Shown here piece after piece: positions 29,873 to 48,785 of a stretch of DNA of 52,714 nucleotides (the stretch's first letter is position 1; each line of letters opens with the position of its first letter). A program made the translations under genes and the position numbers. Where the stretch lies: the NCBI GenBank assembly GCA_051382295.1, contig JBBCAW010000115.1, forward strand, positions 1-52,714, read 5' to 3'. The stretch comes from Bdellovibrionota bacterium FG-1. Its GTDB lineage: Bacteria; Bdellovibrionota; UBA1018. The notes below the pieces were generated by a model. The model saw only the letters and a list, made by a program, of their open reading frames with translations. It was not told the DNA's origin and did not search any database.

Positions 29873-29875
29873 GAT

Positions 29876-33124: not shown

Positions 33125-33336
33125 TAGAGATCCATGTCCTCGCGCGATTTTGGACGGGCGATTTTCCTCTTTGGGATTTCTTCGACCTTGTCTGTTTCAG
33201 AGGGCTGTACGGACTTCTTTTCCCGGGTGGCTTCATCCAGCTCAGGTGAAGGCCGCCAATTGCGACCGCGCTCACGGTTTCTCTCGCGTGCGTAGGCGAC
33301 CGGGTTCTTTTCCTTGTCTGGTTTTTCAGGTGACAT
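33124..33336 (-). CDS. Small charged protein upstream of the PIN gene
   Basis: RBS AGGAG; TAATG overlap with the PIN gene. Confidence 0.55.
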   Translation of the reverse strand: MSPEKPDKEKNPVAYARERNRERGRNWRPSPELDEATREKKSVQPSETDKVEEIPKRKIARPKSREDMDL

Positions 33337-33440: not shown

Positions 33441-34165
33441 TCATTTAGACTTGCTCTCATTCACAATAACCACCAGCTGTTCCATCACGGCCGGGTCAGT
33501 CGGGATGAAACTCAAAGCTTCGGTCGCCCCGGCCTCATCGACGCCGGCAAGACGCACGTACCTCTGCATGGTTTTGAGGTCCTTCCATTCTGCAATTTTC
33601 ATGACCACCGTTGCGGGGACTCCGGTTGCGATCAGTTGAGTCGCAAAACAGGCTCTGAGTGTGTGGAATCGAATTGAAGGCAAGTCATTCGCCTGAGAAA
33701 AGCCTCGGAGAATGTTTGCCTGATTTCCGGACTTCCAGTCCGAAAACTGGGGCAGGATGTGGTCTTGCGGGCTCATCCCGTAGATGTTGAGTTCGGTCGA
33801 AAAAAAGCGGTAAAGTTCGCTCGAAATCGGCACCGTTCGCCAGTAGTCCGCCTTGGTGGGGCCGACCGACGCTGATAAATGGGTAGCGCTTCCTGCTTTT
33901 CGGCATCTTCCGGCGACACAATTTCGACATCATGGCGCTTAAGCTCTTGAAGCTTTCCACTGCGACATCCCGTGAAAACCGCTGCTACCCAAATGGGGTG
34001 CCAGGAATGGCCCTGTTCACGGGCCTTTTTCAAAAGAGCCGGATTTGGTCGATCGTGAGGATCTCCGGCGTTGATTCTTCCCGCTCCTTTTTAAGCTCGA
34101 CGCCGTAAACAGGGGTTTCTCGGATGCCCTTGATTATTCCCTCGTCGATTCCCCATTTGTAAATT
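33441..34165 (-). pseudogene. Decayed tyrosine integrase (5'-truncated, frameshifted)
   Basis: Fragments in different frames (IYKWGIDEGIIKGI..PEILTIDQIR / TGCRSG / RFHTLRACFATQLI...MQRY) are homologous to the intact integrase next door. Confidence 0.9.
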
Positions 34166-34190
34166 GGAGGTTTTGATGTCTCCTCAGTAA

Positions 34191-34232
34191 TATCAAGCTA
34201 TTAGACACTGTATAAGACAAAACTAAGACAGC
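34191..34232. promoter_or_regulatory. Probable att-junction elements: IHF site plus arm-type repeats
   Basis: TATCAAGCTATTA (34191-34203) matches IHF consensus WATCAANNNNTTR; TAAGACA is repeated at 11-bp spacing just downstream of the integrase. Confidence 0.55.
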
Positions 34233-34284
34233 GTCAAAATGAATTTGATGCCTCACTATTTTTACCCATTGTATCATTTACTTC

Positions 34285-35472
34285 TTACTCTTCTTTATCG
34301 TCGTCTTGCTTGTCGTCGTTGCCGGTCCCGTCCGGTGCCTGGGTAAAGGAGCTTCCAGCCCGCTCCATCACTTCGGCCTCGGGCAGTACGCGGAGGGTGT
34401 CAGTCGCCCCTTCGATCTCGATCCCAGCTAGCCGGATATACCGAGCCATGGTTGCGAGGTCTTTCCACCCACAGACTTTTTGAATCCGAATCGGCGCTAC
34501 GCCGCTGCGAATTAACTGCGTGGCAAAGCACGCTCGGAGGGTGTGAAAACGAATCGAAGGAAGACCTATACCTATGCAGAATTCCCGAAGCCGGGTGGCC
34601 TGCATCCCTCGGCTCCAGCACCCGATTCGGGGAAGGATCGAGGGCCGGTCGCCCGCTTGGGCCTTCAGCTCTTTGAGCACAGTCATCAGATCGCCAGATA
34701 TCGGCACCGTCCGCCAGTCGCCGGATTTCGTGCTCTTAATGAGCTTCCTCCGACAATTGAAGGATTTTGTTACCGATAGCTGTTTGTTCTCCCAATCTAC
34801 GTCACCCCAGAGCAGGGCGTACAGTTCACCGCTTCTCATGCCGGTGAGTAATGCCAATGTCCAGATCGGGTACCACCGTGATTTCAGATTGCGGGCCTCG
34901 GTGAGTAACTTACGAATTTGTTCCAGCGTGAGGATTTCGGGCTTCCTTTCCTCTTTTCGTTGGATCGTGATTCCGTAGGTTGGTGCTCGGTCGATGCCTT
35001 TAATCAAACCTCGCTCCATGCCGTAGGCGAAAACGCGATGAATCGTGTTTTTTGTCTTAGCAAGAAAGCTATTGGAAGAACCATTGGCTTTGAGCTGACC
35101 AAAAAGTTCTTGAATGTCGCCGCGAGTGATCTCGTTTGCGCTTCTCTTCCACCAATGACTGGTGTGTTTTACGAGAGACGCTACGTAGTCTTTGCGGGTT
35201 TCATCTAAAACTTGCTCGGTCGTTTCTAAGCTCAGGTGCTTGGACCATGCTTCTACTACTGCGCCCCAGCTCGACCCTTGCGTTTCTTTTTTCAAAACTT
35301 CGGCCTGACAGTCCCGAAGCAGCTTCACTTCCTCACGTTCCGCTTGCTTCAAGGTCTTGCAACCGAACTTCCATCGCTGGAGACGAATGCCGGGGTTGAC
35401 TCTACTTCTCACGCAGACGTAAGCTTTCCAGAGCTTTTCACCTGCATCAGACTGATATTCCATGATTGCCAT
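34285..35472 (-). CDS. int: Tyrosine integrase
   Basis: TGMRSGE, K, HTLR, GW and Y catalytic residues; RBS GGGAGGT before ATG 35472. Confidence 0.95.
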   Translation of the reverse strand: MAIMEYQSDAGEKLWKAYVCVRSRVNPGIRLQRWKFGCKTLKQAEREEVKLLRDCQAEVLKKETQGSSWGAVVEAWSKHLSLETTEQVLDETRKDYVASLVKHTSHWWKRSANEITRGDIQELFGQLKANGSSNSFLAKTKNTIHRVFAYGMERGLIKGIDRAPTYGITIQRKEERKPEILTLEQIRKLLTEARNLKSRWYPIWTLALLTGMRSGELYALLWGDVDWENKQLSVTKSFNCRRKLIKSTKSGDWRTVPISGDLMTVLKELKAQAGDRPSILPRIGCWSRGMQATRLREFCIGIGLPSIRFHTLRACFATQLIRSGVAPIRIQKVCGWKDLATMARYIRLAGIEIEGATDTLRVLPEAEVMERAGSSFTQAPDGTGNDDKQDDDKEE

Positions 35473-35473
35473 G

Positions 35474-35716
35474 CTACCTCCCAAATGAGAGGGCAGAGGG
35501 TTTAAGGATATGGTCGAGGTCACTTCTTAAAAATCGGAGCCGATTGCGGATTCGGTAAAAGTTCACCTGCCCGCGCCAAACCATATTTCGGATTTGGCCA
35601 ACCGACACACGAAGATAAAAAGCGGCCTCCTTTGAGGTCATCCATTTCAGCTTGTCAAAGATCAGTGCCTCTGAAGTTTCGTAAGAAACGTCAAGGGCTG
35701 TTTCTCCCTTTTTCAT
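35474..35716 (-). CDS. Excisionase-like HTH protein
   Basis: WMTSKEAAFYLRVS...IRN.V..G...RLRF...DLD. Confidence 0.85.
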   Translation of the reverse strand: MKKGETALDVSYETSEALIFDKLKWMTSKEAAFYLRVSVGQIRNMVWRGQVNFYRIRNRLRFLRSDLDHILKPSALSFGR

Positions 35717-35717
35717 A

Positions 35718-36131
35718 TCATTCAACCCCATTTTCCGCGAGTAAAATGCGTTTTTCTTTCGTCTTCCCGGTCTTTCGTTCTGCGCGTACGACGGGGCGAT
35801 GGCGTGCAATGATCTCTGTGAGCGTGGTTGATTCGCCACGACTTTGTGTCGCTTTTAACTCTCGCAAAGCCCACTCAGCAAAACGCACTTCATCGAAAAA
35901 CGCGGTTTCAAGTCCGCGAAGTTCAGCGGGGGACAACAGGGTGTCATGATGACAAAGCAACCAATTGACGAGCTGATTGCGGCTTAGGGTGATTTTTCGC
36001 CCTTCAAGTTCATCCACCCAGGCGTTGACTCGTTCGAGGGCTTGTGCGTTAATTGTGATACGGTCGGGGTTACGCGTATGGGGTTTTGTTGGTTCAGCAG
36101 TCGGCGTTGCCGATTCTAAGGCATGCTCCAT
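35718..36131 (-). CDS. Hypothetical ICE protein (possible RHH/relaxosome accessory)
   Basis: In the operon; N-terminal strand-helix-helix pattern. Confidence 0.6.
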   Translation of the reverse strand: MEHALESATPTAEPTKPHTRNPDRITINAQALERVNAWVDELEGRKITLSRNQLVNWLLCHHDTLLSPAELRGLETAFFDEVRFAEWALRELKATQSRGESTTLTEIIARHRPVVRAERKTGKTKEKRILLAENGVE

Positions 36132-36355
36132 ACGCTCCCCCTTTCAAGGACCCAGATGTAGTGGCCTTGGATATATTTTCCATCTTCAATTTTATCCTCC
36201 TGCCAAACTTTGCGAACCACAGGCGCCGTGAGTTTAGGTGAATCCGGATCTGTGGAAACAAGACCTGAAGGCGAGGCTTCAATTTTTTGAACTTTGCCAG
36301 GGCTGGCGCAGCCTGAGAGTGTCATGAGAAATAGAATGAGAACGATAGAACGCAT
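36116..36355 (-). CDS. TraV/VirB7-like lipoprotein
   Basis: Lipobox LSGC; P.VRKVW...GHYIWV motif. Confidence 0.7.
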   Translation of the reverse strand: MRSIVLILFLMTLSGCASPGKVQKIEASPSGLVSTDPDSPKLTAPVVRKVWQEDKIEDGKYIQGHYIWVLERGSVWSMP

Positions 36356-36436
36356 GAAGACTCCTGAAGTCCTGCATGGGAGCAGGACGGTTTTGTAAAT
36401 AGAGTGACGGGGCTGTGAATAGGGCAGAATGCCTAT

Positions 36437-37306
36437 TCAGTAGCGGTTTGCGTCCAAATCGAGCGGACGCCAAGTGGCGGATGTATGAGGCGATTTTCGA
36501 GTGTCTAATAAAAATTTTGCGCTAACTGGATAGCGGGAAGTTAGCGGTTTTTCTCCAAGTAAAAAACCAATCGATTTTCCTTGTTCTGGTCCACATTCAA
36601 TAGGGGCCTCCCAACCTGCTTGAACAAAAGCGAGGTAACTTACGAAGTTATGGATCATGGGTCGACCGCGAAGGGCATTCGCGATCTTGGAGTGGAGATT
36701 GTGACTTGTGGCTTCGACGGGAGTAAGCCAAAGCACGCGAATGACCTGGGGCTCGCCCGCGTAAAAATCCGCGATGATCTCGTATTCTACCTCTTTTTTG
36801 CGCGAGAGCTCAACCTCCAAAGCCACGGTTGCCATGGGTCGGCCAATGGGGACATACCAATAGCCATCGGGACGATGACGATCTGAGCGCGGCACCCACG
36901 GTGGATAGAATTCTAACGGAAGGCGCCGCAATTCTTGTTCGGAGAAAAGCGCGGTTCCATCAGGGACGTTGTGCATGAAATTCCCTAGGTGAATGGCGGT
37001 CGTCACAAGATCGTGCAGTAAGTTCTCAGATTTGAAGCCTTCCTCCTTTAGCGGGGGTAATGTCTTTTGAACCCGCTCAAACCCTTGACGGGTGAGAGTC
37101 CAGATATGGCAGCGCGCGATCCGATCCGAATTACACTGGATAAAGCTCGCCCGCTCAAGTTGCCACAATCTGACGTACGCGCTTTGTGGGGTAAAACTGG
37201 GAAAGATCGCGCGCGCGATGCCCGCAGTGGTGCAGACCTTCCATTTCCAGAGAAAATACAGAAGCTCCCGATCGCGTGGATTCAAATTGAGTTTAGTGGG
37301 TTTCAT
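36437..37306 (-). CDS. Replic_Relax (MOBC-like, PD-(D/E)XK) relaxase
   Basis: N-terminal wHTH (RD..LL..L), HDL, RPDG, LEVE..RK. Confidence 0.75.
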   Translation of the reverse strand: MKPTKLNLNPRDRELLYFLWKWKVCTTAGIARAIFPSFTPQSAYVRLWQLERASFIQCNSDRIARCHIWTLTRQGFERVQKTLPPLKEEGFKSENLLHDLVTTAIHLGNFMHNVPDGTALFSEQELRRLPLEFYPPWVPRSDRHRPDGYWYVPIGRPMATVALEVELSRKKEVEYEIIADFYAGEPQVIRVLWLTPVEATSHNLHSKIANALRGRPMIHNFVSYLAFVQAGWEAPIECGPEQGKSIGFLLGEKPLTSRYPVSAKFLLDTRKSPHTSATWRPLDLDANRY

Positions 37307-38789
37307 GATTCACTTCATCGTCTCCATGGATGGGTAATGGTTCAATTGGCGTAAGGGGCGCGATTTCAGCCACGGAAGCCCCGGGCACGCGATGTTCTTT
37401 GAGAAGTTCATTCGTCTCCTCAATGCTCAAGTAAGGGACCTGGACTTCCGTCATTTCAGCGCCACTTTTCCATATGGCCCGTCCTGAAATGGGCGGAAGG
37501 TCGGAGGCGCGACCGACCCCTAAAACAGTGATACTCGAGGTATCGTTTTGCATTTGAAAGCAGAGAACGCCTGTGAGGTTGGCTTTGACTTGTGGATCCA
37601 GGGCTCGGCTATCGGGGCGTTGGGTGGCAATGACGAGGTGAACACCTACGCTGCGGCCAAGGCGCGCAATTTGGCTCAAAACTCCTCGGGCGCGTTGGAT
37701 GTCGGCGCTCTTGGCGTGGTGGCCCGCCAAGAACATTTCGGCGGCTTCATCGATGATGATCACCTGCCGAGCAAGGGAAACCTGGGGTCGCATCGCCTGG
37801 TAAGCATCGATGTCCTTGCACCCGTGCTCCTTCAAAAGGACCATCCGCTTTTTTAGTACATCTTCGGCGCGGACAAGGGCGGCAATGGCACGCTCTACAT
37901 CCGGAATCACATGGGCCCGCTTTAAGTTCTCAAAAATCTGAAACTCGATTCCCCCCTTCAAGTCAATGAGGGTAAATTCAAGATCCGACTGATTGAGGTA
38001 AAGGGTTACGATCATTTCGCGCAGAAAGCTCGATTTACCACCGCCAGTTTGACCGGCGACTAGCAGGTGGGGGACTTCGCGAAAAGATGCAGTCAGTTGG
38101 CGCGCTCGCGTTTTTCCCACCGCAAAATGAAGGGCTGGGATCCCACGAATGTTATCAAGTTGCGCAAATGTTGGCATGGGGCAATGCGCATAGATCAGGT
38201 CGAGCGTCCCGCTCTCACGGTTTTCTCGAATTTCGTCGACATAGACTTGGAGCGCACTTTCAAGCTGAGGCCTGGCCTTCTCAAATTGAGCAAAGGATAG
38301 CCCTGCTCGATAAAGTCTCATCTTCCTCGTAAACGCGTCCACGGGCTTATCGAAGATGAATTTGGGTAGGCTCCCAAGCGGGCTTTTTAGGCCTGCATCG
38401 ACAAAAACTCGGGTGAGGCGCTCAATGAGGTCGTTTCTCAGTTTCATTTCTCGGAGTGCCCAGCCCCAAAAGCCCAGCGTGAGCATCGCGGTACAGTAAG
38501 GCCAATAGAACATCGGGCGATACGGATAGATTACGCTCAGATGAGCTGCCGCGAATATTCGTTGGTCCACATGGGTGGCGATAAAGAGGCCGGCCGTGCT
38601 TCCTAGGGCAAGGGCCTCGGCCCATGGAAATGACCCTGCGCGAATCGCATGAATGAGTTCAACGGTTGGCTGGTAAATGAGGGTTCCAATATTCTCGGTG
38701 AGCTTCAATAGATCCAGGTGAGCCAGGGTGTCGATGGGTGATGGAGACCGTGTAGATACACGAATAGGGCGTTGTGGGTTTGAATTCAT
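37293..38789 (-). CDS. FtsK/SpoIIIE (TcpA-like) coupling ATPase
   Basis: N-terminal TM segments; PHLLVAGQTGGGKS, IDLKGG, IIDE, ATQRP. Confidence 0.9.
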   Translation of the reverse strand: MNSNPQRPIRVSTRSPSPIDTLAHLDLLKLTENIGTLIYQPTVELIHAIRAGSFPWAEALALGSTAGLFIATHVDQRIFAAAHLSVIYPYRPMFYWPYCTAMLTLGFWGWALREMKLRNDLIERLTRVFVDAGLKSPLGSLPKFIFDKPVDAFTRKMRLYRAGLSFAQFEKARPQLESALQVYVDEIRENRESGTLDLIYAHCPMPTFAQLDNIRGIPALHFAVGKTRARQLTASFREVPHLLVAGQTGGGKSSFLREMIVTLYLNQSDLEFTLIDLKGGIEFQIFENLKRAHVIPDVERAIAALVRAEDVLKKRMVLLKEHGCKDIDAYQAMRPQVSLARQVIIIDEAAEMFLAGHHAKSADIQRARGVLSQIARLGRSVGVHLVIATQRPDSRALDPQVKANLTGVLCFQMQNDTSSITVLGVGRASDLPPISGRAIWKSGAEMTEVQVPYLSIEETNELLKEHRVPGASVAEIAPLTPIEPLPIHGDDEVNHETH

Positions 38790-38794
38790 AAAAA

Positions 38795-39715
38795 TTAGTC
38801 CTTTTTGAAAATGATAAAGAGGGGAGTGGTGGCAGGAATTTCATATACGGGGGGCCGATTCTTCATATCGGACATGATTTCTCGGGATTGTTCGAGGGCG
38901 GCAGTGGCGGCTCCGTTGAGCATCGCGTTTTTGAGAGTAGGCTTGGTGATCACAGCTCCGTTTTCGCCTTGGGTATCCTGAAGTGCGGCACTCATGCCGC
39001 CCACAAAATTGAGGCCAATTCCCATTCCTAGTTTGAGGGCCTGGCTTCCGACCTGGGAGCCTTTGAGGCCCGGAATTTTGTCAGACGCGTCGCAACCTTG
39101 GGCATCGACAGTTTCCACCGCGCCGTCTTGAAAGACCATCTGCGTGAATTGGATCATCAGCCGGTTTTCGCCCGATTGGCCGGAACCCAGTAACAGGGTT
39201 CCTTGAGGGACGAGGGTTTCACCGCCAAAAGAAAGGGTTTCTACGATCTCCGCGCGCACCGGACCATTGGAAGCACCGGACACCAGCACGGCTTTGACCA
39301 TCGCGCCGGGCGGAATCTTGACTGCGCGGGGACGGGCCACGACTTGCGGTCCTCGAAACTTCGAGCGCGTTGAACGGGATGGATCAGACGTGGTTCCAGA
39401 CCCATCGATTTGGGGTGCGGGGCTTGTTTCATCGCGCGAGCGAAGTTCAGGAATGGTTATCGTGGCGGAGCCGCCGACATCAGATGGGGGTGCAAAGGCG
39501 GGACGAGCCGAAGTGTTTGGGGCGGGCTCCGGCGTATTTTGCACAAGAAGTAGGCCCGCAACGCAGCCAAAGGAAATGCCAGTACCCAACAAAACACGGT
39601 GAGAGACGAGGGTACGTTTTCGTCCATCATCGCGGTAAAAGAGGCCGCGCCCCCATTGGCGGAGGCGGCTCTTGGCCTCCGTCGTGGTTGTGACCTTCAG
39701 TATTTCGTCACTCAT
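38795..39715 (-). CDS. VirB10/TrbI-like protein
   Basis: TM plus Pro-rich linker plus IPPG...L.G...PV.A...VPQGT.L.G. Confidence 0.8.
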   Translation of the reverse strand: MSDEILKVTTTTEAKSRLRQWGRGLFYRDDGRKRTLVSHRVLLGTGISFGCVAGLLLVQNTPEPAPNTSARPAFAPPSDVGGSATITIPELRSRDETSPAPQIDGSGTTSDPSRSTRSKFRGPQVVARPRAVKIPPGAMVKAVLVSGASNGPVRAEIVETLSFGGETLVPQGTLLLGSGQSGENRLMIQFTQMVFQDGAVETVDAQGCDASDKIPGLKGSQVGSQALKLGMGIGLNFVGGMSAALQDTQGENGAVITKPTLKNAMLNGAATAALEQSREIMSDMKNRPPVYEIPATTPLFIIFKKD

Positions 39716-40158
39716 AGTTTGGCTTGCGTCCCTTCTGCATCGGCGTCGCGAACGAGCACGATAGAGTCGCCGCCCGCTGGCACCGACATGAGGTTGAACG
39801 CAAAACGTCTGCCCTCGAGATAGACAAAAAGATTCGAACTCGCGTGGGCCGAGAGGGCCGCAATTGCCAAATCGTTTTCAACGTATTCCACGGCAAAAAC
39901 GCCCTGATTACCCATGATGACTTTGGTGGGCTTGGTCGGGAAGCTCAAGACCGTACTTCTTCCCGGTGTGACGCGAATCGGCACAATCATCTCGCTCGTG
40001 AGTTTGAGCGTGCGAATACCTTGGGTAAACGCCTTGGGGGGGATGACCTTTTTCGGCGTCGCATGTCCATAATGGGTGGCAAACAGCGCAAGCCAGAGCG
40101 CAAAAACGATCAGGGCTAGAAAATTCGGATCCTCGATAAAACTTTTGAGTTTATTCAT
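39712..40158 (-). CDS. VirB9/TrbG/TraK-like protein
   Basis: Signal peptide; G.STVL.FP, SNLFV. Confidence 0.7.
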   Translation of the reverse strand: MNKLKSFIEDPNFLALIVFALWLALFATHYGHATPKKVIPPKAFTQGIRTLKLTSEMIVPIRVTPGRSTVLSFPTKPTKVIMGNQGVFAVEYVENDLAIAALSAHASSNLFVYLEGRRFAFNLMSVPAGGDSIVLVRDADAEGTQAKL

Positions 40159-40694
40159 TTTGACACTTCTCCTTTGGGTTGACTGATTTTAATGAGCATC
40201 AGGCCATAGGGGTTGCTTTCGCTTCGAGGGGTCGAGGCGAGAGTCAGGGTCAGTGAAAATAAGAATGCTGACCGGATCGAACCCACTGAAATGAGCCGGT
40301 CGGCATCAAGTGTGACGGTATCGTTCGAAGATTTGACTCCATTGACGATCACCTTTTGAGTCATGCCCCGCGCCGAAAGTTCCTTTTGCTCCGCCAGGCG
40401 CTGGGCTTCTTCATCGGGCGATAGAAAGCCAGGCTGAGGCGCCCAATCTGAATTGAATCGTTGTGTGATGGCCTCACGTACAAACGTTTCGATTTCGGTC
40501 GCGCTATGCTGGTTTCCCGGCGTGAGCGAAACGGTGCGGGAAAGGCAGCCGCGCTCAATGACGAGCGGTTCTTTGAGGGCAAGCCTCGCCGTTGTAATGG
40601 TTAAAGCCAGGGTGCAAATTCCCAAGGCAACTAGGCCAACCTTGAGTGTGACATTTTGAGCGGAAGTTGCCGCCCATGCGTGGGTAAATTTCAT
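40155..40694 (-). CDS. VirB8/TraE-like protein
   Basis: N-terminal TM and C-terminal NPYGL motif. Confidence 0.7.
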   Translation of the reverse strand: MKFTHAWAATSAQNVTLKVGLVALGICTLALTITTARLALKEPLVIERGCLSRTVSLTPGNQHSATEIETFVREAITQRFNSDWAPQPGFLSPDEEAQRLAEQKELSARGMTQKVIVNGVKSSNDTVTLDADRLISVGSIRSAFLFSLTLTLASTPRSESNPYGLMLIKISQPKGEVSK

Positions 40695-41563
40695 TTTGAT
40701 CCTTTGGTAGGGGACTTTGAGAAAAACCGCTCTTGAAGCCTGGACGTCGTTTGGTAGGCCTTTTTGCCTTTGGCGTAGGCGCTTGCAAAGGCATTCAAGG
40801 GCGCGGCCATCGTGGCACCTGCGACGATTCCGCCTGCTGATTGTGCCAAACCCTCAAAACCTGAACCTGCCAGCGCATGAACCACCATCGGCACGAGAAG
40901 TAGAGAGCCTGCCAGGATCAGGTTGAGAAATATCACGGTGGCGAAAGGGACGTTCTGGTCAGGCTTGTTGATATTGGAAAGGGCAAAACTCCAAAGAAGT
41001 GTTGCCAGCACTGAAAGAACAATCTTCCAGCAACTGACCTCGATCAACGAGCGATAGAGGGCTTTGGTCGCTCCGGCAGTCGAAGGCAGGACGTAAAGTG
41101 CAATGAGAAGCGGCGAAAACACGTAAAGAAGCGTCCAAGTGTAAAGCATAAAGGCCTGAATGGCGTGCACGGCCAGGTAAAGGAAAAAGAACGTCAAAAA
41201 TGAAATAATTTGGACGAGGGTCTCCTTGACGCTCACCCAAGAGAGTGAAAATTGCCCCAGTTTATCGCCCATTTTCGAAAGCACCAGATTAAGCTGGTTT
41301 AAATCGCCAAGCTTGGCGGAGAACGCGTCCACCACGTCGGCAATCGTATTGCTCACTTCTGAATAGGAGTGAAGCAGAAGGGTCGCAATAAGAACGCGCC
41401 CAATGAGCACCGAAAATGACGGCATTTGCCCGAGGGGCCACTTGAAGTACTCGATAAAAATTCCTAATAGTAAAAAAACAGTAATCAGGGCGTAAAATAG
41501 GCCATAAAAAATAGCATGAATCTGATGCGCCTCGGATGCGAGCCATGACATATTACTGAACAT
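40691..41563 (-). CDS. VirB6/TrbL-like polytopic membrane protein
   Basis: Five to six TM segments, SPL.IA...LP.T motif, Gly/Ala-rich tail. Confidence 0.7.
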   Translation of the reverse strand: MFSNMSWLASEAHQIHAIFYGLFYALITVFLLLGIFIEYFKWPLGQMPSFSVLIGRVLIATLLLHSYSEVSNTIADVVDAFSAKLGDLNQLNLVLSKMGDKLGQFSLSWVSVKETLVQIISFLTFFFLYLAVHAIQAFMLYTWTLLYVFSPLLIALYVLPSTAGATKALYRSLIEVSCWKIVLSVLATLLWSFALSNINKPDQNVPFATVIFLNLILAGSLLLVPMVVHALAGSGFEGLAQSAGGIVAGATMAAPLNAFASAYAKGKKAYQTTSRLQERFFSKSPTKGSK

Positions 41564-41565
41564 CG

Positions 41566-42255
41566 TTAAAACCTCGGAGTCGTAAAATTGGCTGGGTCGG
41601 ATTTCATCGATGATTTGAGACTCTGAGTGTCGGAAATCATGTGCCGGGTCATGTCTTTATCTTTTTTGTTTTCGAGTTCAAGCTCCTGGGCTTGGAGCTT
41701 CAGGCCGGTCCCCTGGGCGCGCAGGCTTTCGTTCATCACATTGAGCATGACGCCCAAGGACTCGGCCGTGAGTTTTTCAGCCCCGCCAGGCGAGGTCAGG
41801 TGCGAGTCAGCTTTGATTCGTTCGCCAATGGGGTCAATTGTGCCCGTGTAGCTGTAGATCGAATTGTTTTGCGCAATCGCCTCGGCAACCGTTTGGTCGG
41901 TAGTTTGCTGCATTCGCGTGTCCGAAGGAGAGGTGGCGGCGGCGCCATAAAGCTGCTGGAGAGTTCGAAGGGCATCATCGGTTTTTGTGAGTCCTCCGTA
42001 AACGCCCGGGCCGGCGTTGGGTCCAACCGTGTTTAAGAGGTAGAGTGAATCGTTAATTCCTCGGTTAATGTCTCGCATGATGCCGAGGGTGTCCTGGCCT
42101 GCCCCCATGATTTGTCTGAGGTTGGTCAGTTGTTGAACGGCATTGGCAAGGATAGACGCAAGCAAGGGCAAGTCCCCACCGAAAAAATCCGCGTGTACGG
42201 TAGACGGAAGAGAAAAAAGCAAAAACACCGTGAATGCCACCAATGTCTTTTTCAT
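41566..42255 (-). CDS. VirB5/TrbJ-like protein
   Basis: Signal peptide, helical Gln/Asn-rich, located between virB4 and virB6. Confidence 0.6.
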   Translation of the reverse strand: MKKTLVAFTVFLLFSLPSTVHADFFGGDLPLLASILANAVQQLTNLRQIMGAGQDTLGIMRDINRGINDSLYLLNTVGPNAGPGVYGGLTKTDDALRTLQQLYGAAATSPSDTRMQQTTDQTVAEAIAQNNSIYSYTGTIDPIGERIKADSHLTSPGGAEKLTAESLGVMLNVMNESLRAQGTGLKLQAQELELENKKDKDMTRHMISDTQSLKSSMKSDPANFTTPRF

Positions 42256-44678
42256 ATCAAACCCTCGGCACCTGCGGCAGCAACCCCGCGTGGATATTTG
42301 AGGGATAGCGCGGTGAGGGCAGCCAGTGTGGGGACGTCAGACAGCGTGCGAATTCGTTCAAATCGCTCATTGATGAGTGCCAGATCGCGTGGGTCGGTCG
42401 TGGCAATCCAGTATTCGAGAGGGGTGGTTTCTATGGCGACCACTGACCTATGGTCTTGGGCTATTAAAAACGCCTCCGAATAAACGCCTCGTTCCTGATG
42501 GAGGGATGCGATCAAGGCCATCTCCTGGTCGTTGAGCTGCAAGACCTCCTTCAACCGGCCCTGATCGGCCCCCCGTTGGGCGAGACACCATTTGACGGAC
42601 GAGTTGGAGAGGATGGCCCCTGCGACCTTGCTTTTAGCGAAGTCATCCATATTTTGTGAAATTGCAATCGCTCCGGCGTAATACTTGCGAAACGTGCGAA
42701 AGACTTCAGCGATGAAGCTTGCGCCGGCGTCGCTTTCTAAAAGCTTCCAGCACTCATCAAAAATAAGAAATTTCTTTGACTGCGTGTCACGCTGGACCTC
42801 GCGCCAAATAAAGTCCGTAATAATGAACAAGCACACGGCCTGAAGGTCGGGGTAACTTTCCATGCCCTTGAGGTCAAAGGCCACCACGCGCTTTTGAAAC
42901 TCGATCGTGGTCGGCCGGTCTACAACTTTTCCATAAGGAGTATTGCCACACCAGGGAGTCAAAATCCGGCCATAACGGCGGATGGACACGTCGTTATGGG
43001 CAAGTAAGATTTCTCGAAGGATTGAAAGACAGGGAGTTTTCCCGGCTTCATAAGTTCGGCAGATGCTCTCTTCAATTTCCGCTCGTTCAAGACGCGGAAC
43101 CCGGGCTTCGTCCTCCTCCTTGGTCATGAGTTCCACGAGACCCGTCAGAAACTTGATTTTTTGGGGCGAGGGCACGGATTCACCCGGGAATAAGTCAAAT
43201 GGATTGACCGAAAGCTCAGCGCTTACACCAAGTGGGATGTACTGGCCCGACAAATGCTCCGAGAGTTTGCGGTACGATCCGCCGATATCGACGATAAATA
43301 TTCTGGGATTCTCCTTGAGCATTTGAAGCAAAAGGACGTTGGTGAGAAAACTCTTGCCACTGCCGGATCCGCCGCTGATGACGTGATTGTAGTTCGTGAG
43401 TTCTTGATCGAAGGGATCAAAGCTCACCAGGCTCCCCATGCGCGAACGAAGCAGAATGCTGGGCTGTTCGTGACCGTTCCATGGGCCATACAACGGCAGA
43501 AAGTCCGCTAAAGTGGTGGTTTTCATGCGCTTGAGCCGCTCTTTTGTGCGGGCGTTTGGGATTGAAAACTGGGAGAAGAGATCAAAAGCGGCGAGGCTTT
43601 CTTCCATTGCCTCAGCGCCCCCGAGTTCGCGAACCTTGGCGAGCGTTTGCGATACTTGGGTTTCAAGCTCCGAGGTTTCACGGGATCGAAGCAGAATATT
43701 AAGGCTGACTTGAAAGACTTTTTCACCCTGAGCGATCAATTCGCCTAAAAGGGTTTCGATATCCTGAAACTTGGCTTCACTTTCAATATCGGAGACGCCG
43801 GTTTTTTTTCCGCGAGCCATCGAATAGGCAAGGCGGCGCTGGGTCTGAAGGCTTGAAAGCTCCTTTTGTTGATCGGGCACCAAAATCGTAAGAAACAAGC
43901 GCGAATCAAAAGGTAGTTCTCGCAGAGTGGCTGCCATTGCTGAAAAGGTTTGCTCGGGCAGGAGTTTGAGCGATACGACGCGATAGTGAAAATCAGCAAG
44001 ACTAAAGCCACGCTCATTTAAAACGGCGTCGGTGAAGAGGAGCGAGGAACGAACATCCTCGGGATCGTAAGAGGCTAATCCGATGGCGCGACTTGGGTTC
44101 CACTGGGCATAGATCAATTGGATGACCTGATCCCCATTCAGTGAAACCGGAGCAATGCCCAAGCCGCTGAGTCGTTGCATGACATCATGACGGAGGAGGT
44201 GGGTTGCCGCGACTTCGCGTGAAAGCTGGGCTTCGCCCATTTTAGGAAACTCTCGGTTACGCGAAAAAAGGGAGGGCTTCTCCAAAAGAGCTTGGGCAAA
44301 GGGACGACGAACAAAAACCTTGAGAGTGTGTTTGGGCAATTCACCTTGGGCGTCTAGCTCTGTTAACCGGGCGACGCGGGCCGTGCAGAGGGCCTGGGCC
44401 ATCTCGCTCGCCTCGGCAACCCGCGCGCCTTCGTGCGCGGCCAACACCTGGGAGTTGCCCTTGCCGATCTCCTGAATAAATTGAAGATGAATCCCGGTGG
44501 GGAGACCGTTTAAGAACTGCGTGATCTGCGAAGAAAGGGAGTTGATGCGTTCTTCGTCAGTGCAAGAAATGTCCAGGGGCGCCAGCTCTAGGCCAAACCC
44601 AAGTGAACCGTCGGAAAATAGAATCAAGTCTCTTTCAAAGCCCCAGACTTGGAGCTGATCAGCAAGGGTGGCGCTCAT
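42252..44678 (-). CDS. virB4: VirB4/TraC ATPase
   Basis: GGSGSGKS, DIGGSY, NPF, FDECW, RKY....ISQ. Confidence 0.92.
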   Translation of the reverse strand: MSATLADQLQVWGFERDLILFSDGSLGFGLELAPLDISCTDEERINSLSSQITQFLNGLPTGIHLQFIQEIGKGNSQVLAAHEGARVAEASEMAQALCTARVARLTELDAQGELPKHTLKVFVRRPFAQALLEKPSLFSRNREFPKMGEAQLSREVAATHLLRHDVMQRLSGLGIAPVSLNGDQVIQLIYAQWNPSRAIGLASYDPEDVRSSLLFTDAVLNERGFSLADFHYRVVSLKLLPEQTFSAMAATLRELPFDSRLFLTILVPDQQKELSSLQTQRRLAYSMARGKKTGVSDIESEAKFQDIETLLGELIAQGEKVFQVSLNILLRSRETSELETQVSQTLAKVRELGGAEAMEESLAAFDLFSQFSIPNARTKERLKRMKTTTLADFLPLYGPWNGHEQPSILLRSRMGSLVSFDPFDQELTNYNHVISGGSGSGKSFLTNVLLLQMLKENPRIFIVDIGGSYRKLSEHLSGQYIPLGVSAELSVNPFDLFPGESVPSPQKIKFLTGLVELMTKEEDEARVPRLERAEIEESICRTYEAGKTPCLSILREILLAHNDVSIRRYGRILTPWCGNTPYGKVVDRPTTIEFQKRVVAFDLKGMESYPDLQAVCLFIITDFIWREVQRDTQSKKFLIFDECWKLLESDAGASFIAEVFRTFRKYYAGAIAISQNMDDFAKSKVAGAILSNSSVKWCLAQRGADQGRLKEVLQLNDQEMALIASLHQERGVYSEAFLIAQDHRSVVAIETTPLEYWIATTDPRDLALINERFERIRTLSDVPTLAALTALSLKYPRGVAAAGAEGLI

Positions 44679-45001
44679 GCGGACCTCCTTTGGTTAAATG
44701 GCCGGGGGGGAATGTTCCATTGCGAAGGATCTGGGAATGCGTGAAGGGTGCCGGGTTTGATCTGAAATCTCAGCCAATGGATCAGGTAGTTGTCAGGCTT
44801 TCCCTTCTTGCCTAAAAGCAAGACGGCCGCTAACGCGACGGTTGGGAGCCACACAAAAAGGAGTTTGAGGGGCATTTGCCCAAAAACAAAGTTGAGCACC
44901 GAAAGGGTGAGAAAAATTGCAAGCACGTCGGGCACCTCGAAACCCATGAGTAAAAGTTTTTTGTCCAGGCACTTGGCGACGGAAGTAGTTCGTAGGCTCA
45001 T
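44675..45001 (-). CDS. VirB3/TraL-like protein
   Basis: Two TMs, KGKP..YL.H motif, overlaps the virB4 start. Confidence 0.7.
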   Translation of the reverse strand: MSLRTTSVAKCLDKKLLLMGFEVPDVLAIFLTLSVLNFVFGQMPLKLLFVWLPTVALAAVLLLGKKGKPDNYLIHWLRFQIKPGTLHAFPDPSQWNIPPRPFNQRRSA

Positions 45002-45024
45002 AATGATCCCTTTAAAAAGGGGTG

Positions 45025-45064
45025 CCTCGGAGCCACCATCCTGAGGTGGGCGACAGCTCCGAGG
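45025..45064. terminator. Hairpin after the pilin gene
   Basis: CCTCGGAGC...GCTCCGAGG inverted repeat. Confidence 0.5.
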
Positions 45065-45074
45065 ACTTATCCCT

Positions 45075-45371
45075 TTAGTTCACTAACCCTCGGATGAAGG
45101 CGATGATTGATGGTGCTCCAAATCCGATAGCGGCGCCAAAGATGGCCAGCGTCAGGTGAGCCCGGGCATTGGGTGAGCCTGCGACAAACGAGAGGCCGGC
45201 AAAGACGAGCCCCAAGATTGCCGCAAGCGGAAGAATGACGGTAATGAGCTTGGTTTGAATCGCAGCGAGGCTAGACTCCACGCTGCAAAACCCAAATTGT
45301 GGCATTAGAAATCCGGCACTGATCGCCAGTGTCGGGATCAAATAGGGACGGAGGCGAATAAAGAAACGCAT
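45075..45371 (-). CDS. VirB2/TrbC pilin
   Basis: Signal peptide plus two hydrophobic helices, G..I.FGA..I motif. Confidence 0.85.
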   Translation of the reverse strand: MRFFIRLRPYLIPTLAISAGFLMPQFGFCSVESSLAAIQTKLITVILPLAAILGLVFAGLSFVAGSPNARAHLTLAIFGAAIGFGAPSIIAFIRGLVN

Positions 45372-45386
45372 TCGTTTAGGGTCCTT

Positions 45387-45767
45387 TCAGTTCGATGGAA
45401 ACAGGTTCATGAAGATGCTTCCAAAGAGCAGCGGAAAGCGGATTTCCAGGTAGCTTTTGAGTTCAGCGTTCAGTCGTCCTGATCCAACCGGGTTTTGAAA
45501 GCGGGCGCCTTCACGTGCGGTGGGATCCACGACACGGCGAGAAAAGACCGTGTATTGAGACGGAGAGTCCCGATTTTTTACAAGATAGTATCTCTGGTGC
45601 GGAAACATCGAGAGTTTGAGCACATAGTGAGACTCTCCCTCATGCGAGAGCGCGTAGCCTGCGCGAAGGGGATTGACGAGTTCACCGTTTATCATCTTTC
45701 CAAGCAACAGATCGTAAGGGGTCGGTATCTCTTTGATTATTTCGGATTTTTGTTCAACTTCATTCAT
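45387..45767 (-). CDS. Hypothetical protein
   Basis: ORF in the ICE operon; beta-rich. Confidence 0.65.
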   Translation of the reverse strand: MNEVEQKSEIIKEIPTPYDLLLGKMINGELVNPLRAGYALSHEGESHYVLKLSMFPHQRYYLVKNRDSPSQYTVFSRRVVDPTAREGARFQNPVGSGRLNAELKSYLEIRFPLLFGSIFMNLFPSN

Positions 45768-46006
45768 TGGGATTCCCTCGCGAAATTTCTATAAAAACGG
45801 ATTTGACCGATATCAAATTCGGCCGTGGTGTCGTGGTCAGTGGCCCTTCCAGGGTCGATGATTTCTTTTAGGGTGATCAGACTTGCACGAAGTTGGTGCA
45901 TGCGACTTTTGATGCGGGTGTCATTTTTTTTGACTCGGTCGGGGATTAGCGAAAGGAGCCGATCGAGTTCTGATTCGATTTTGGTTAGGACGTGAATGGT
46001 TGTCAT
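45764..46006 (-). CDS. Hypothetical protein
   Basis: RBS GAGGAGG; overlaps the next gene. Confidence 0.6.
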   Translation of the reverse strand: MTTIHVLTKIESELDRLLSLIPDRVKKNDTRIKSRMHQLRASLITLKEIIDPGRATDHDTTAEFDIGQIRFYRNFARESQ

Positions 46007-46034
46007 CGTTCTTTTACCTCCTCAAAGTGCGGGG

Positions 46035-46190
46035 TTACATCCAAAGCCTTCCGCCATGCGGAAAGCTCCAGTCGGATCGGTCCTGTTCATGACCTGAATC
46101 CTTCTTTTTCTTAGGGTCGGTCGTGGTGCATCCTGCGATCACCAAAGAAACGGCCATGGCCAGGATGGCCGACATAAGAATGCGTTTCAT
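46035..46190 (-). CDS. Small lipoprotein (possible entry exclusion)
   Basis: MKRILMSAILAMAVSLVIAGC lipobox; ATGA overlap. Confidence 0.65.
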   Translation of the reverse strand: MKRILMSAILAMAVSLVIAGCTTTDPKKKKDSGHEQDRSDWSFPHGGRLWM

Positions 46191-46489
46191 TGTGGGGTCC
46201 TCGTTTCGGAAGTCGTATCGCCCATCGGGATCAGCGTGATTTTTCGATGAGGGGTGACCTGTGTGTTCTTGGCTGTTCGGATTAAGTTTGATGCCAAGTT
46301 CAGTTGCAGCAGAAGCACGGCGAGCAGGATCGTCGTGAGGATCGCCGCGATAGGACCAAAGCACACCCTCGATGCGAGTTTTTCGAGGGCCGATTTTACG
46401 AACCGAGCGATGGCTCGGAGCATGTTTTCGATGGGACGGCGAAAGTCGAGATGATCGACGTTTATGTTTTCGTTCATAAAGGGCTCCAT
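46187..46489 (-). CDS. Single-TM hypothetical protein
   Basis: Hydrophobic helix; overlaps neighbours. Confidence 0.5.
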   Translation of the reverse strand: MEPFMNENINVDHLDFRRPIENMLRAIARFVKSALEKLASRVCFGPIAAILTTILLAVLLLQLNLASNLIRTAKNTQVTPHRKITLIPMGDTTSETRTPQ

Positions 46490-46689
46490 TATGCGGAAAG
46501 GGGTTTAACAGACGTTAGGGCGTGAATCGCCCAATCGGGAATGACGGCGTAATTATCGCCGCTTGTGTAGTCGGCCTCTGGGCTATAATTGCAATTGGTG
46601 CAGTAGGAATGGGTGGCCAGCCTTTCAAAGCCGTTCCAACCGCAGCGATTGCAGCGCCCGAGGAAAATAACAAAATCGTCTTCGTTCAT
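46489..46689 (-). CDS. Small zinc-ribbon protein
   Basis: CNRC...CTNC; RBS AGGAG. Confidence 0.6.
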   Translation of the reverse strand: MNEDDFVIFLGRCNRCGWNGFERLATHSYCTNCNYSPEADYTSGDNYAVIPDWAIHALTSVKPLSA

Positions 46690-46852
46690 GGGGTCTCCTT
46701 GTGGTTCTAGGAGGCGCCAAGAAACTGCTCCTCCCACTTGTTAAAAATGCAAGTGGAAGGGGTGTTTGTGCCAACCCAGCCGAAGTGGTGGATTCGATTT
46801 GGGAAATTTATTTTTAGGGGCGTATCGTGGGATCAGCTGCTCAGAAGAAAAC

Positions 46853-46926
46853 AACGAAGTTTCGTAGCGTTTTTTTGGTTTTTGCTGAGTGATTAAGGGG
46901 TTAGGGGAAAAACGAAGTTTCGTAGC
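46853..46926. repeat. 16-bp perfect direct repeat with palindromic core
   Basis: AACGAAGTTTCGTAGC at 46853-46868 and 46911-46926. Confidence 0.85.
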
Positions 46927-47191
46927 CTCCGATAATTCGTAGGCTGTAGGCAAGTCCCTACACCTTACTTTGTAATTCCCTACACTCCGCCGTTGTCGAA
47001 TTCACCGAACCTCGGAATCACGGACCGGCTTTTTATGGAAACTCTATCATTTCAACAGATCGAGTAGAACTCTCGGCTCGAACGATGCGGTTTATTCAGT
47101 GGCACGTCACTTGCTCATGCTGCGACTTGTTGCGTTAATTATGGCGCTTCTAAATTATAGAGTTTTCGAATTGAAATGGAATGAGGTTTTT

Positions 47192-47692
47192 ATGAAAAAG
47201 GTTTCTCAAATGGTTTTGGTTGTCGGCCTGATGGTTGTGACGGTTGGTCTTTCGGCTTGTGGAGGCGCAAGTAGTAACGGGACAGGTGCCGTCTCTGGAG
47301 AAAGTCAAAGTTTAGCGACCTTCACCGAGCAGGAGCTTGGTGCGGATCTCGCCAATCTCGATGGCAAAGAAAAGGGCCTTGAAAGTGCTGGCATGCGATT
47401 TCAGACTTCTGTAGATAGCGTCAGTTCGATCGCGCAGTGTTCGTGGGATCCGGAAGCCTTTACTACCGCCTTCAAGAACAATCCAGCCCTCACTCAGGCT
47501 GATATGGTCAAAGCCTTACAAGAGTACCTGGACGCCGCGAATGCCTACCTCAAAAAATACGATGGTGTGTTTACCTTTAAGAAAAGCGATGGAAGCACCG
47601 AGACGGTGAGTCTAAAGGATCCCGCAAAAAGTAAAATCAAAGCGAAAGTGGATTTGTCGACCAGGAGTTTGGACAAGTTGAAAAAGGGGTGA
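47192..47692 (+). CDS. Lipoprotein
   Basis: RBS GAGG; MKKVSQ...LSAC lipobox. Confidence 0.8.
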   Translation: MKKVSQMVLVVGLMVVTVGLSACGGASSNGTGAVSGESQSLATFTEQELGADLANLDGKEKGLESAGMRFQTSVDSVSSIAQCSWDPEAFTTAFKNNPALTQADMVKALQEYLDAANAYLKKYDGVFTFKKSDGSTETVSLKDPAKSKIKAKVDLSTRSLDKLKKG

Positions 47693-47807
47693 GGGGTTGG
47701 GAAGTCGGATTATTTTTAATCCGCTCGTCAAATTCTGTGCAGGAGTCTGTCTAACCGCCCTGCTTTTTGTGTTGTAGCAGTCAGGTCGACAGTATATTCT
47801 TTCACGA

Positions 47808-48785
47808 ATGGCAATTCCAACCGTGGAACTTGATAAAATACTTGCTACGAGACCCGGCATAGTAAAAATGAAACTCCGGCAGTCCCTTCATCTGGGCGGG
47901 TTGATTCGGGAGGCTAAGAGATCCCATGTAGCAAGGTTGGAGCAACTGCAAACTGAAGCAGAAGAGCTTCAAATATTGATGCCGCTCTCACCCCTGAGGC
48001 TTAGGGCAGATATGCTCAAATTTCAGTCGGCACGCCACGAGGATGATATAACCGCTTGGTTAGCTTACCTGATAAGTGCACCGTTTCTCCCTGAGTCACA
48101 AAGGCAGCAAATAGTGGACTCATTTTGGCTCCCGGCATTTGGCCTGCAGAATGCAGAGTTCAATTTTGGGCCATTTCAAAAAGCAGAACGGGAATGTAAA
48201 CTTTTATCAGAGTGGATGGTGAAAAACGAAGAGGAGTCGATGGAGCACCGTTATCTCGACCTTGTTCTTTTGTTCGAAAAAGGGGCGGTGGTTTTTGAGA
48301 CGAAGGTTGGTGATCGTAAATTCGAAAAGAATTGGATTTATTCTGAGATCATCAAAAAGTCGGACGCATTTTCTGAATTCCTAGAAAAAAATGTCGTCAA
48401 ACTTTTCCTGCTTCCGGAACAAACCCTTCGGCGCCTTGAAAATAAGTTAGCCGATACAATTGAGTTTGAGGACAGAAAAAGAACGACCAAATGCATCTCT
48501 GGCTCTGATTGTTTAGAGAGCTTTACCCCCTTGACTTGGGAGCAATTACTTGGTCAGATTTATGTTCAATTGAATGAAGTTCTCCCTGGAGCAGTGGAGT
48601 TCCTTGTATGGAAAACACAGGTTTTTCTGTTTTGTAGTTTTGTTGAGGCGCACGTACTTGGGCTTGACCTTTCCGGAATAGAGCTGGCGCTTATTGATAA
48701 AAGCAAAGGTTGGGTCAGTCAAGAAAGTCTTTCTTGCGTTGATTCTTATCTTAAATTACGAAGAAAAATGGAGCAGTTGAAATGA
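47808..48785 (+). CDS. PD-(D/E)XK nuclease family protein
   Basis: ED.ITAWLAYL, ERE, YLDL, VFETKV. Confidence 0.7.
   Translation: MAIPTVELDKILATRPGIVKMKLRQSLHLGGLIREAKRSHVARLEQLQTEAEELQILMPLSPLRLRADMLKFQSARHEDDITAWLAYLISAPFLPESQRQQIVDSFWLPAFGLQNAEFNFGPFQKAERECKLLSEWMVKNEEESMEHRYLDLVLLFEKGAVVFETKVGDRKFEKNWIYSEIIKKSDAFSEFLEKNVVKLFLLPEQTLRRLENKLADTIEFEDRKRTTKCISGSDCLESFTPLTWEQLLGQIYVQLNEVLPGAVEFLVWKTQVFLFCSFVEAHVLGLDLSGIELALIDKSKGWVSQESLSCVDSYLKLRRKMEQLK

Follow-up and report, generated by a model that had tools for sequence, protein, structure and literature searches.

What moves DNA out of a diderm cell when a conjugation locus encodes a VirB-like channel and a relaxase, and an FtsK-type ATPase stands in the place of VirD4? 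The question is posed by the 52,714-nt contig JBBCAW010000115.1 of Bdellovibrionota bacterium FG-1 (assembly GCA_051382295.1), the whole of which is called the window here (contig C115 of genome G000). Gram-negative conjugative type IV secretion systems (T4SSs) use VirD4, and the coupling protein TcpA is limited to some Firmicutes systems of mating-pair formation class FA (MPF_FA) with MOBT or MOBM relaxases (PMC12857230, PMC3548315, PMC4027160; these and the other cited papers are drawn on in their accessible parts). We read the region from 46689 to 34285, on the minus strand, as the module for transfer and integration in an integrative and conjugative element (ICE) whose DNA would be nicked by a MOBC-like relaxase and pumped by an FtsK/TcpA-type hexamer through a minimal VirB channel, and we put the probability of this reading at about 0.68.

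A compact transfer module without VirD4

All named open reading frames (ORFs) of the module are open and run uninterrupted in the ORF list, in the order four small leader genes, a 126-aa gene, virB2-3-4-5-6-8-9-10, the ATPase, the relaxase, a lipoprotein, a 137-aa gene, xis and int. We scanned 33 ORFs from 26.8 to 52.1 kb of the window against Pfam and NCBIfam. The integrase, Xis, ATPase, VirB10 and VirB4 passed curated Pfam cut-offs and VirB2, VirB3, VirB6 and VirB9 gave family matches below them; VirB5, VirB8, the lipoprotein and the relaxase had no family match of their own and are assigned through homologues. No VirB11, VirD4, HUH relaxase or lytic transglycosylase was found among the 33 ORFs, and in a genome-wide search all 16 VirB11-like and all four VirD4-like matches fell on other contigs, none on C115 or on C140, which carries a second copy of the module. 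An earlier first-pass annotation of this DNA had listed the same gene set on one strand, had noted that VirB11, VirB1, VirD4 and an HUH relaxase were missing, and had stated that TcpA is typical of Firmicutes MPF_FA systems and VirD4 of diderm ones; the scans and the papers cited above bear out all three statements. The locus combines several of the features by which ICEs are recognized: a VirB4-type T4SS, a coupling ATPase (a role assigned by its position and by a VirD4 exchange described below) and a relaxase in one chromosomal locus, with a linked integrase and Xis.

The coupling-protein position holds an FtsK/TcpA-type ATPase

The 498-aa ATPase (37293..38789; Walker A at residue 246, Walker B at 345) has a single PF01580 domain (85.8 bits) and no match to PF02534, PF10412 or PF12696. 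Among PDB sequences its best match was TcpA of the Clostridium perfringens plasmid pCW3 (E 1e-33, 30% identity), followed by EccC (3e-20) and FtsK (5e-15), with no TrwB or VirD4 chain among the 15 matches. Among plasmid and phage matches, too, TcpA of C. perfringens and FtsK-like genes of Bacillus stood at the top, and blastp gave 132 bits to TcpA, 124–125 to phage FtsK-like proteins, 56 to Orf21 and at most 32 to six VirD4s. A predicted model (predicted local distance difference test, pLDDT, 90.6) retrieved TcpA first and FtsK next with Foldseek. VIA-align superposed it equally well on TcpA and FtsK, including the alpha domain (Z 31.5 over 341–344 residues, root-mean-square deviation 4.8–6.8), less well on EccC (Z 28.1 over 260) and on TrwB over the RecA core only (Z 16.3 over 206). 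Family matches, together with the predicted fold, show the ATPase to be TcpA-like and not of the VirD4/TrwB kind.

In trees the ATPases of these elements form one clade (support 100/99 and 100/100) within a polytomy on the FtsK side. Approximately unbiased (AU) tests rejected housekeeping FtsK as its sister (p 0.0005) and retained TcpA (p 0.177) and phage FtsK-like proteins (p 0.366). Descent from a Firmicutes TcpA, or a hybrid (the word of the first-pass annotation) with a Firmicutes donor, is not shown, as the trees support neither this nor another sister. With pCW3 TcpA, whose family includes Tn916 Orf21 and ICEBs1, the window ATPase shares the alpha and beta FtsK-type motor fold and an adjoining relaxase gene. 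In contrast to TcpA systems, the window has a diderm host, VirB9, VirB10 and TraV outer-membrane parts, a MOBC-like relaxase in place of MOBM or MOBT, a VirB4 unrelated to TcpF/Orf16 and an ATPase in its own clade.

The relaxase is MOBC-like

Next in order lies a 289-aa protein (36437..37306) whose predicted model (pLDDT 93.5) has a winged helix (residues 1–88) and an alpha/beta domain of PD-(D/E)XK type. A fold search matched residues 5–84 to MarR-type winged helices (Z 10.4); a wide search with the whole protein was dominated by winged-helix rows and barely probed the nuclease domain. A profile built from 103 of the 108 homologues found could be aligned, over positions 7–177, to TraX, the MOBC relaxase that pTEF1 encodes (E 7e-4 at Z=1000). 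The alignment places D147, E164, E166, K170 and Y175, spaced D-x16-E-x-E-x3-K-x4-Y, on TraX D152, E170, E172, K176 and Y181, and these residues are conserved in 103, 103, 102, 99 and 99 of the 103 rows, respectively. The same profile gave chance-level scores against MOBT, MOBM, MOBF and MOBP controls and E near 10 or no match against four phage Replic_Relax proteins. The Replic_Relax family PF13814 was matched by 24 of the 103 close homologues at E<=0.1 (best 9.3e-5), and eight of 14 distant homologues exceeded its cut-off. The window relaxase returned two chance rows from the plasmid collection and only winged-helix repressors from PDB sequences.

PF13814/Replic_Relax is listed as the MOBC family in Table 1 of PMC5357655, where, in the accessible part, it is met only with VirD4 in streptococcal integrative and mobilizable elements (IMEs) and never with TcpA. 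MOBC relaxases join a winged helix to a PD-(D/E)XK domain, and the part of PMC12857230 used here reports no covalent intermediate; TraX has a catalytic DEE motif, and its Y181 is required for transfer (PMC6736028, with PMC5714925 in agreement, both as far as accessible). Because Replic_Relax equates to MOBC in PMC5357655 and the profile aligns with TraX, the relaxase is, judged by its sequence, MOBC-like, and its nicking chemistry would not be new. What was proposed at first pass as possibly unusual DNA processing thus comes down to a family that is known, though poorly understood, and newly paired. The layout is common to the window protein, pAD1/pTEF1 TraX and CloDF13 MobC, and the catalytic spacing to the window protein and TraX. 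The window family departs from these in an insert (SEQELRR...PxWVP), a C-terminal extension, a variable R180 position and a Pfam score under the cut-off, and in its partner, an FtsK-type ATPase where the MOBC relaxases of pTEF1 and streptococcal IMEs pair with VirD4 (PMC5357655, accessible part). Standard scans would probably class the family as MOB-less, its relaxase lying under the Pfam cut-off.

The module is conserved, and in one relative VirD4 takes the place of the ATPase

The gene order recurs throughout a family of elements. Besides the window copy, the genome has a complete second one on C140 (40–62% identity) and a diverged one on C24, both in the same order. A GTDB scan with VirB4 returned 17 loci; the titles of 14 name Bdellovibrionota taxa, and the other three are titled as 'Proteobacteria', 'Deltaproteobacteria' and 'Lysobacteraceae' metagenome-assembled genomes. 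All 11 loci that reach past virB10 have the ATPase and relaxase in the same order, 10 of them with the lipoprotein; the remaining six of the 17 stop at a contig edge. Seven further stretches, from six genomes, keep the order in 7/7. The ATPase lies directly upstream of the relaxase in 29 of the 30 best loci, of which the window is one, the single miss being at a contig edge. Of the 401 genomes in the window's phylum, the relaxase profile matched 162 at E<=1e-8 and 56 at <=1e-40, the window's own genome included, and in a metagenome library it matched 403 clusters (50% identity) at E<=1e-30. Copies are patchily distributed among genomes, with up to several each. From locus titles and Atlas taxa we infer Bdellovibrionota as the host phylum; the range beyond it was probed by a single scan with VirB4 and by collections of plasmids and phages.

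We also opened 20 weaker relaxase matches, picked for long contigs. An FtsK-type ATPase adjoins the relaxase in 11 of them, nine with virB genes of the family, one near a different VirB4 type and one without T4SS genes in range. In another of the 20, from the complete, single-contig genome G105, a VirD4 of 533 aa lies between virB2-3-4-5-6-8-9-10 and a related relaxase, along with an inserted AAA gene and a small ORF. Its VirD4 exceeds the cut-offs for PF12696, PF10412 and PF02534, and its VirB4 groups among the window's family with moderate support (81/92); an AU test on the direction of the VirD4/FtsK swap gave p 0.185. As the FtsK-type ATPase occupies the slot that VirD4 fills in G105, it would act as the coupling protein, and this exchange is the best evidence supporting the view that an FtsK-type protein does VirD4's job.

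The locus might instead encode a non-conjugative channel, for protein export or for DNA release or uptake (for example towards prey or neighbours), with an EccC-like ATPase and a nuclease serving regulation or defence. The highest NCBIfam scores of the ATPase are to EccC/EssC models (100 and 95 bits, far under cut-off), PADLOC SspH models match its motor domain, and VirB9 is truncated. We find such a function quite improbable: the protein has one ATPase domain with the FtsK alpha domain and fits TcpA and FtsK better than EccC (Z 31.5 against 28.1), it is tightly linked to a relaxase-like gene, Xis and Int, its spread is patchy and multi-copy (56/401 genomes), and no effector genes were recognized. 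Conjugation by way of the FtsK/TcpA-type motor remains the preferred reading.

The survey yielded several further arrangements. In L112 (G026:C21, 4859-14610) an FtsK-type ATPase and a relaxase lie within 5 kb of a VirB4 of the type found on contig C19, so the pair can ride with another channel type. Stand-alone Replic_Relax genes with no recognized coupling ATPase occur in L108, L111, L113, L116, L117, L119 and L120, the one in L116 beside xis-int, and are possible mobilizable elements. The virB run carries insertions in L103 (2801-8315), L114 (10961-14092), L105 (8074-9282) and the G229 stretch, where the copy is interrupted by a 1.2-kb repeat resembling an insertion sequence (IS). T4SS loci of another type lie on contigs C19, C28, C35, C63, C81 and C83 of the window's genome and encode long VirD4-like proteins together with PilB/VirB11-like ATPases. 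The VirB4s of these loci make up a long branch of their own, and C19 and C28 share the window element's Xis-Int type.

A minimal channel outside the sampled classes

The 808-aa VirB4 (42252..44678) exceeded the Pfam cut-offs for PF19044 (144.8 bits) and TraC_F_IV (61.6). Against NCBIfam it scored 282 bits with TraC-F TIGR02746 (cut-off 567), 178 with VirB4_CagE TIGR00929, 76.5 with the MPF_G model TIGR03744 (cut-off 520) and 18 with TcpF. Its best plasmid matches were Myxococcus pYRE and Thermus plasmids (229–233 bits), with 29–38 bits to TcpF/Orf16. In trees with references from MPF_F, T, B, FA and FATA (G, C and I left out), the window clade fell outside the starred MPF_F clade and loosely with the Myxococcus pYRE and Thermus VirB4s; an AU test of the window clade with MPF_F gave p 0.016. 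VirB4 is therefore outside the five sampled classes, and to that extent the unclassified MPF type of the first-pass annotation stands, G, C and I being absent from the tree. Gene content agrees: no TraW, TraU, TraN, TraF, TraH, TrbC or TraD of MPF_F was found among the ORFs scanned; there is no VirB11 on C115 and VirB4 is not in the TrwK/TrbE clade, as MPF_T would have it; and VirB10 exceeds its cut-off, the TcpF model scores only 18 bits and VirB4 is placed elsewhere in the tree, unlike MPF_FA.

These comparisons bear on the view that the module is a reduced member of a described class, related to MPF_F or MPF_G or on the undersampled MPF_C or B side, which acquired a Firmicutes FtsK/Replic_Relax pair. 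The likeness to MPF_F (F, IncC/IncHI) consists of a VirB4 that scores best on TraC models, TraL-, TraE-, TraK-, TraB- and TraV-like parts including the lipoprotein, and the lack of VirB11. A possible source of the pair exists, since an FtsK/SpoIIIE gene and a replication-relaxation gene of the same Pfam families stand in the same order in 4/4 Bacillus and Geobacillus phage or phage-plasmid records opened (ATPase 124–125 bits). Those pairs, however, have no T4SS beside them in the records opened and encode shorter proteins, and the window profile prefers TraX to their relaxases, which barely score on it; the sister of the ATPase is lost in a polytomy. The TraC-F score is half of its cut-off, the MPF_G score lower still, and VirB6 and VirB9 are short and follow a VirB-like order, without TraD, MOBF/MOBH or the TraW/U/N/F/H/TrbC set. 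We think a reduced known class rather unlikely, and keep to a minimal VirB channel whose VirB4 lies outside the sampled classes. In the phage records L051, L079, L080 and L081 the pair follows the lysis module or is close to it. The ATPase has matches in 404 phage records, and the literature search found no paper with a functional test of the phage pair.

The Myxococcus plasmid pYRE has VirB2/3/4/6/8-like genes that match window-family profiles and, by eye, a winged-helix nuclease-like gene after the coupling protein. Unlike the window, the Myxococcus pYRE and Thermus T4SSs are on plasmids and have VirD4-type coupling proteins. The pYRE locus (L048, 10696-21115) is typed 'non-mobilizable'; it carries VirD4, the winged-helix nuclease-like gene and the VirB2/3/4/6/8-like genes, and is probably a missed conjugative system.

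The other channel genes vary in how firmly they can be named. VirB10/TraB (38795..39715) matches PF03743 at 69.2 bits and has one membrane segment (41-59). The VirB2-like pilin (45075..45371) matches PF18895 (E 7e-5) and, weakly, PF04956, and its profile matches R388 TrwL and R751 TrbC; VirB3/TraL (44675..45001) has two membrane segments and weak matches to TIGR03750 (E 6e-3) and TIGR02762; VirB6/TrbL (40691..41563) has six hydrophobic segments and a PF04610 match at E 6e-3. The secreted VirB5-like protein (41566..42255) is named through TIGR02791, matched by seven of 25 homologues (best E 3.5e-4), none of which matched the Pfam VirB5 model. For the bitopic VirB8/TraE-like protein (40155..40694) the assignment is weak, drawing on Pfam TraE in one of 25 homologues, on a match to Bacteroides TraK (E 1.5e-4 in a set of 35 reference proteins), on a single membrane segment at the N-terminus and on where the gene lies.

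The 148-aa VirB9/TraK-like protein (39712..40158) has the N-terminal domain only, matching residues 2-88 of 198 in PF03524 (E 5e-4) and 11-111 of 248 in TIGR02781 (E 1e-5). Among 33 homologues 23 are at most 173 aa long (some cut by contig edges) and ten are 224–255 aa; the longer ones belong to a diverged subgroup and to G105. The 79-aa TraV/VirB7-like lipoprotein (36116..36355) is assigned through PF09676, found in seven of 36 homologues (best E 6.3e-5), and through a C-terminal motif that resembles the C-terminus of F TraV when the sequences are set side by side. In F structures the TraV C-terminus and the TraK N-terminus form the central cone. Read against these, the short VirB9 and the TraV-like motif point to an outer-membrane complex that may lack an outer ring. 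Searches of PDB sequences with VirB8, VirB9, the TraV-like protein and the 137-aa protein gave nothing meaningful. The absence of VirB11 and VirB1 is ordinary because, in the accessible part of PMC4027160, VirB11 occurs in only 19% of non-MPF_T systems and VirB1 is non-essential; the short VirB9 is less ordinary.

A proposed route for DNA transfer

Gene content, order and conservation, the family and fold of the ATPase and the catalytic residues of the relaxase are shown, and the later steps proposed here build on them by inference. Int and Xis would excise the element. The relaxase would bind the origin of transfer (oriT) through its winged helix and nick one strand with D147, E164, E166 and K170, Y175 corresponding to TraX Y181. 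An N-terminally anchored FtsK/TcpA-type hexamer would replace VirD4 as coupling protein and pump DNA, most likely single-stranded, into a channel with VirB3, VirB4, VirB6 and VirB8 in the inner membrane, VirB2 and VirB5 as pilus or stalk, and VirB10, the short VirB9 and the TraV-like lipoprotein at the outer membrane. VirB4 would power the channel without VirB11, and reintegration of the circle by Int would follow, with tRNA 3' ends a frequent site in relatives.

The same element could move double-stranded DNA, the nuclease cutting both strands or nicking without a covalent link and the FtsK-like motor pumping duplex. [quoted passage not shown] Duplex transfer nevertheless seems unlikely to us: in G105 a VirD4 of the ssDNA type stands in the corresponding position of a related channel whose relaxase is related too, TcpA/MOBT ICEs are treated as ssDNA systems (PMC3548315, accessible part), Y175 matches the TraX tyrosine needed for transfer (PMC6736028, accessible part), and the model has no folded gamma domain past residue 470, after the motor. 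Just as unlikely is the boldest form of the claim, an undescribed phylum-wide MPF class beyond the eight types that would combine the smallest diderm channel, without a VirB9 C-terminal ring, with an FtsK motor and nuclease moving dsDNA across two membranes.

Several results weigh against ICE transfer driven by a MOBC-like relaxase and an FtsK/TcpA-type pump. In the AU test a split that puts the ATPase and VirD4 together is not rejected (p 0.216), which we attribute to a mere shift of the root among long branches; Pfam, the PDB sequence search and the fold uphold the first-pass view of the ATPase as FtsK-type and not VirD4. The moderately hydrophobic N-terminal helices of the ATPase (~56-75 and 92-111) make a weak membrane anchor, with no hydrophobicity window above 1.6 and family mean peaks of 1.26 and 0.86. 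The window relaxase has no Pfam match, its TraX match is weak, and the nuclease domain retrieved only weak restriction-enzyme rows with Foldseek (PaqCI, FokI, BstEII and EcoT38I, E 0.01–0.05). The TraX R180 position, an arginine before the tyrosine that we take to be part of the MOBC signature, is not conserved (E174 in the window, R in 17/103). Eight of the 20 distant relaxase loci have no coupling ATPase adjoining. Searches for attachment sites (att) in three relatives turned up no clean pair bounded by tRNAs; within the window the sole att-like match spans 9 bp, and upstream the contig ends after ~6 kb. The window copy would be an ICE by its genes; no circular form, oriT, att pair or transfer was seen.

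On balance, the best reading is a new combination of a diderm channel, a TcpA-type motor and a MOBC-like relaxase, and possibly a new MPF class. A literature search in which subscription journals lay mostly outside the range did not find this combination or such elements in Bdellovibrionota, although supplementary CONJscan tables could list such loci; the accessible part of PMC11104534 has nothing on the combination. The family, which occurs commonly in its phylum, breaks three accepted pairings, Gram-negative with VirD4, TcpA with Firmicutes MPF_FA, and MOBC with VirD4. As a compact system it lends itself to asking whether FtsK-like coupling proteins carry ssDNA or dsDNA and how MOBC relaxases, for which no covalent intermediate has been seen, hand DNA to a channel. 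For the first of these questions the element of G105, from the same phylum and with VirD4 in the coupling position, is a natural comparison.

Integration genes, element ends and surroundings

The tyrosine integrase (34285..35472, ~395 aa) scores 77.5 bits with PF00589 and has intact R/H-x-x-R/W/Y motifs; its likely true start, read from the sequence, is 35472 (ORF-finder start 35523). The excisionase-like HTH_17 protein Xis (35474..35716) matches PF12728 (40.1 bits) and TIGR01764 (36.2 bits), with a likely start at 35716. An integrase follows the module in nine of the 11 loci that reach past virB10, and since integrases are 18 to 60% identical, the module would swap them; integrase swaps and tRNAs beside the module are seen in L003, L005, G120 and G229. 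In several relatives a tRNA-3'-like sequence follows int (by eye) or a tRNA lies beside the module.

At the integrase end of the window copy, 34163..34284 (minus strand) is a candidate att end, with an arm-like repeat near 34230 that also occurs after the C140 integrase. Positions 34163-34171 match the 3' end of tRNA-Cys over 9 bp; tRNA-Cys was discarded as the target, as a match of this length is about the chance expectation over 42 RNA ends. Pairings with tmRNA in G165 and tRNA-Ser in G236 also failed. A tRNA scan of the window found none, nor were long direct or inverted repeats bounding the module found, and the far end of the window copy may lie off the contig.

Immediately downstream, 33441-34178 and 32714-33336 hold an N-terminally truncated, frameshifted tyrosine integrase of another element and two small genes. 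This remnant is 69% identical in DNA to an intact element end on C58, with similar remnants on C4, C10 and C89, and the module may have been inserted into, or accreted on, an older element. The family could then be conjugative and the window copy stranded in or next to the decayed integrase gene, the far end missing or removed by a transposon where the contig stops. The broken integrase, the lack of a long att repeat and a transposase-like fragment at the contig end fit this; all 15 core ORFs are nevertheless open and of family-typical length, and the ATPase, relaxase and integrase motifs are intact. We treat stranding as a minority possibility that concerns this copy only.

The remaining genes of the module are small. 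The conserved 137-aa protein (35718..36131) adjoins the relaxase in 19 of 30 loci; in the Atlas it lies with Bdellovibrionota clusters (0.92–0.93), the nearest named clusters being MetJ (0.86) and CB_ParB_C (0.85), a lead towards what is possibly a ribbon-helix-helix relaxosome accessory or regulator. The conserved, soluble 126-aa protein (45387..45767) stands directly before virB2 in most relatives and found no family in Pfam, PDB or Atlas; a possible resemblance to DUF736/SSB gained no support in those searches. The four leader genes (45764..46689) encode an 80-aa helical protein, a 51-aa lipoprotein (46035-46190, likely start 46190), a 100-aa protein with one membrane segment and a 66-aa CxxC zinc-finger protein (46489-46689, likely start 46689), the last recurring upstream in seven of the 17 loci. 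Beyond them the divergent non-coding region 46738..47098, a candidate operator or oriT, has a perfect 16-bp direct repeat (46911-46926 and 46853-46868) that contains a short palindrome; no conservation of the region in relatives was seen by eye.

The module has a GC content of 0.49–0.58 per kb against a genome mean of 0.51, and the upstream cargo at 48–51 kb one of 0.41–0.43. This AT-rich cargo (47099-52146) encodes a lipoprotein, a 325-aa protein in which a PD-(D/E)XK-like motif was spotted by eye, a CsgG-like lipoprotein (E 7e-4) and an XRE regulator, and includes two unknown genes; PADLOC found nothing convincing in it. An open frame at the contig end (52336-52713) has no Pfam match and comes with a repeat common to several other contigs; it presumably resembles the N-terminus of an IS91-family transposase. 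On the other side of the module, 26789-31978 has a metal-uptake cluster with an ABC-3 permease, ZnuA and a porin-like protein, and also encodes a 698-aa protein that has no Pfam match but shows SelO-like motifs by eye; a perfect 24-bp inverted repeat with a 2-base loop lies at 574-623.

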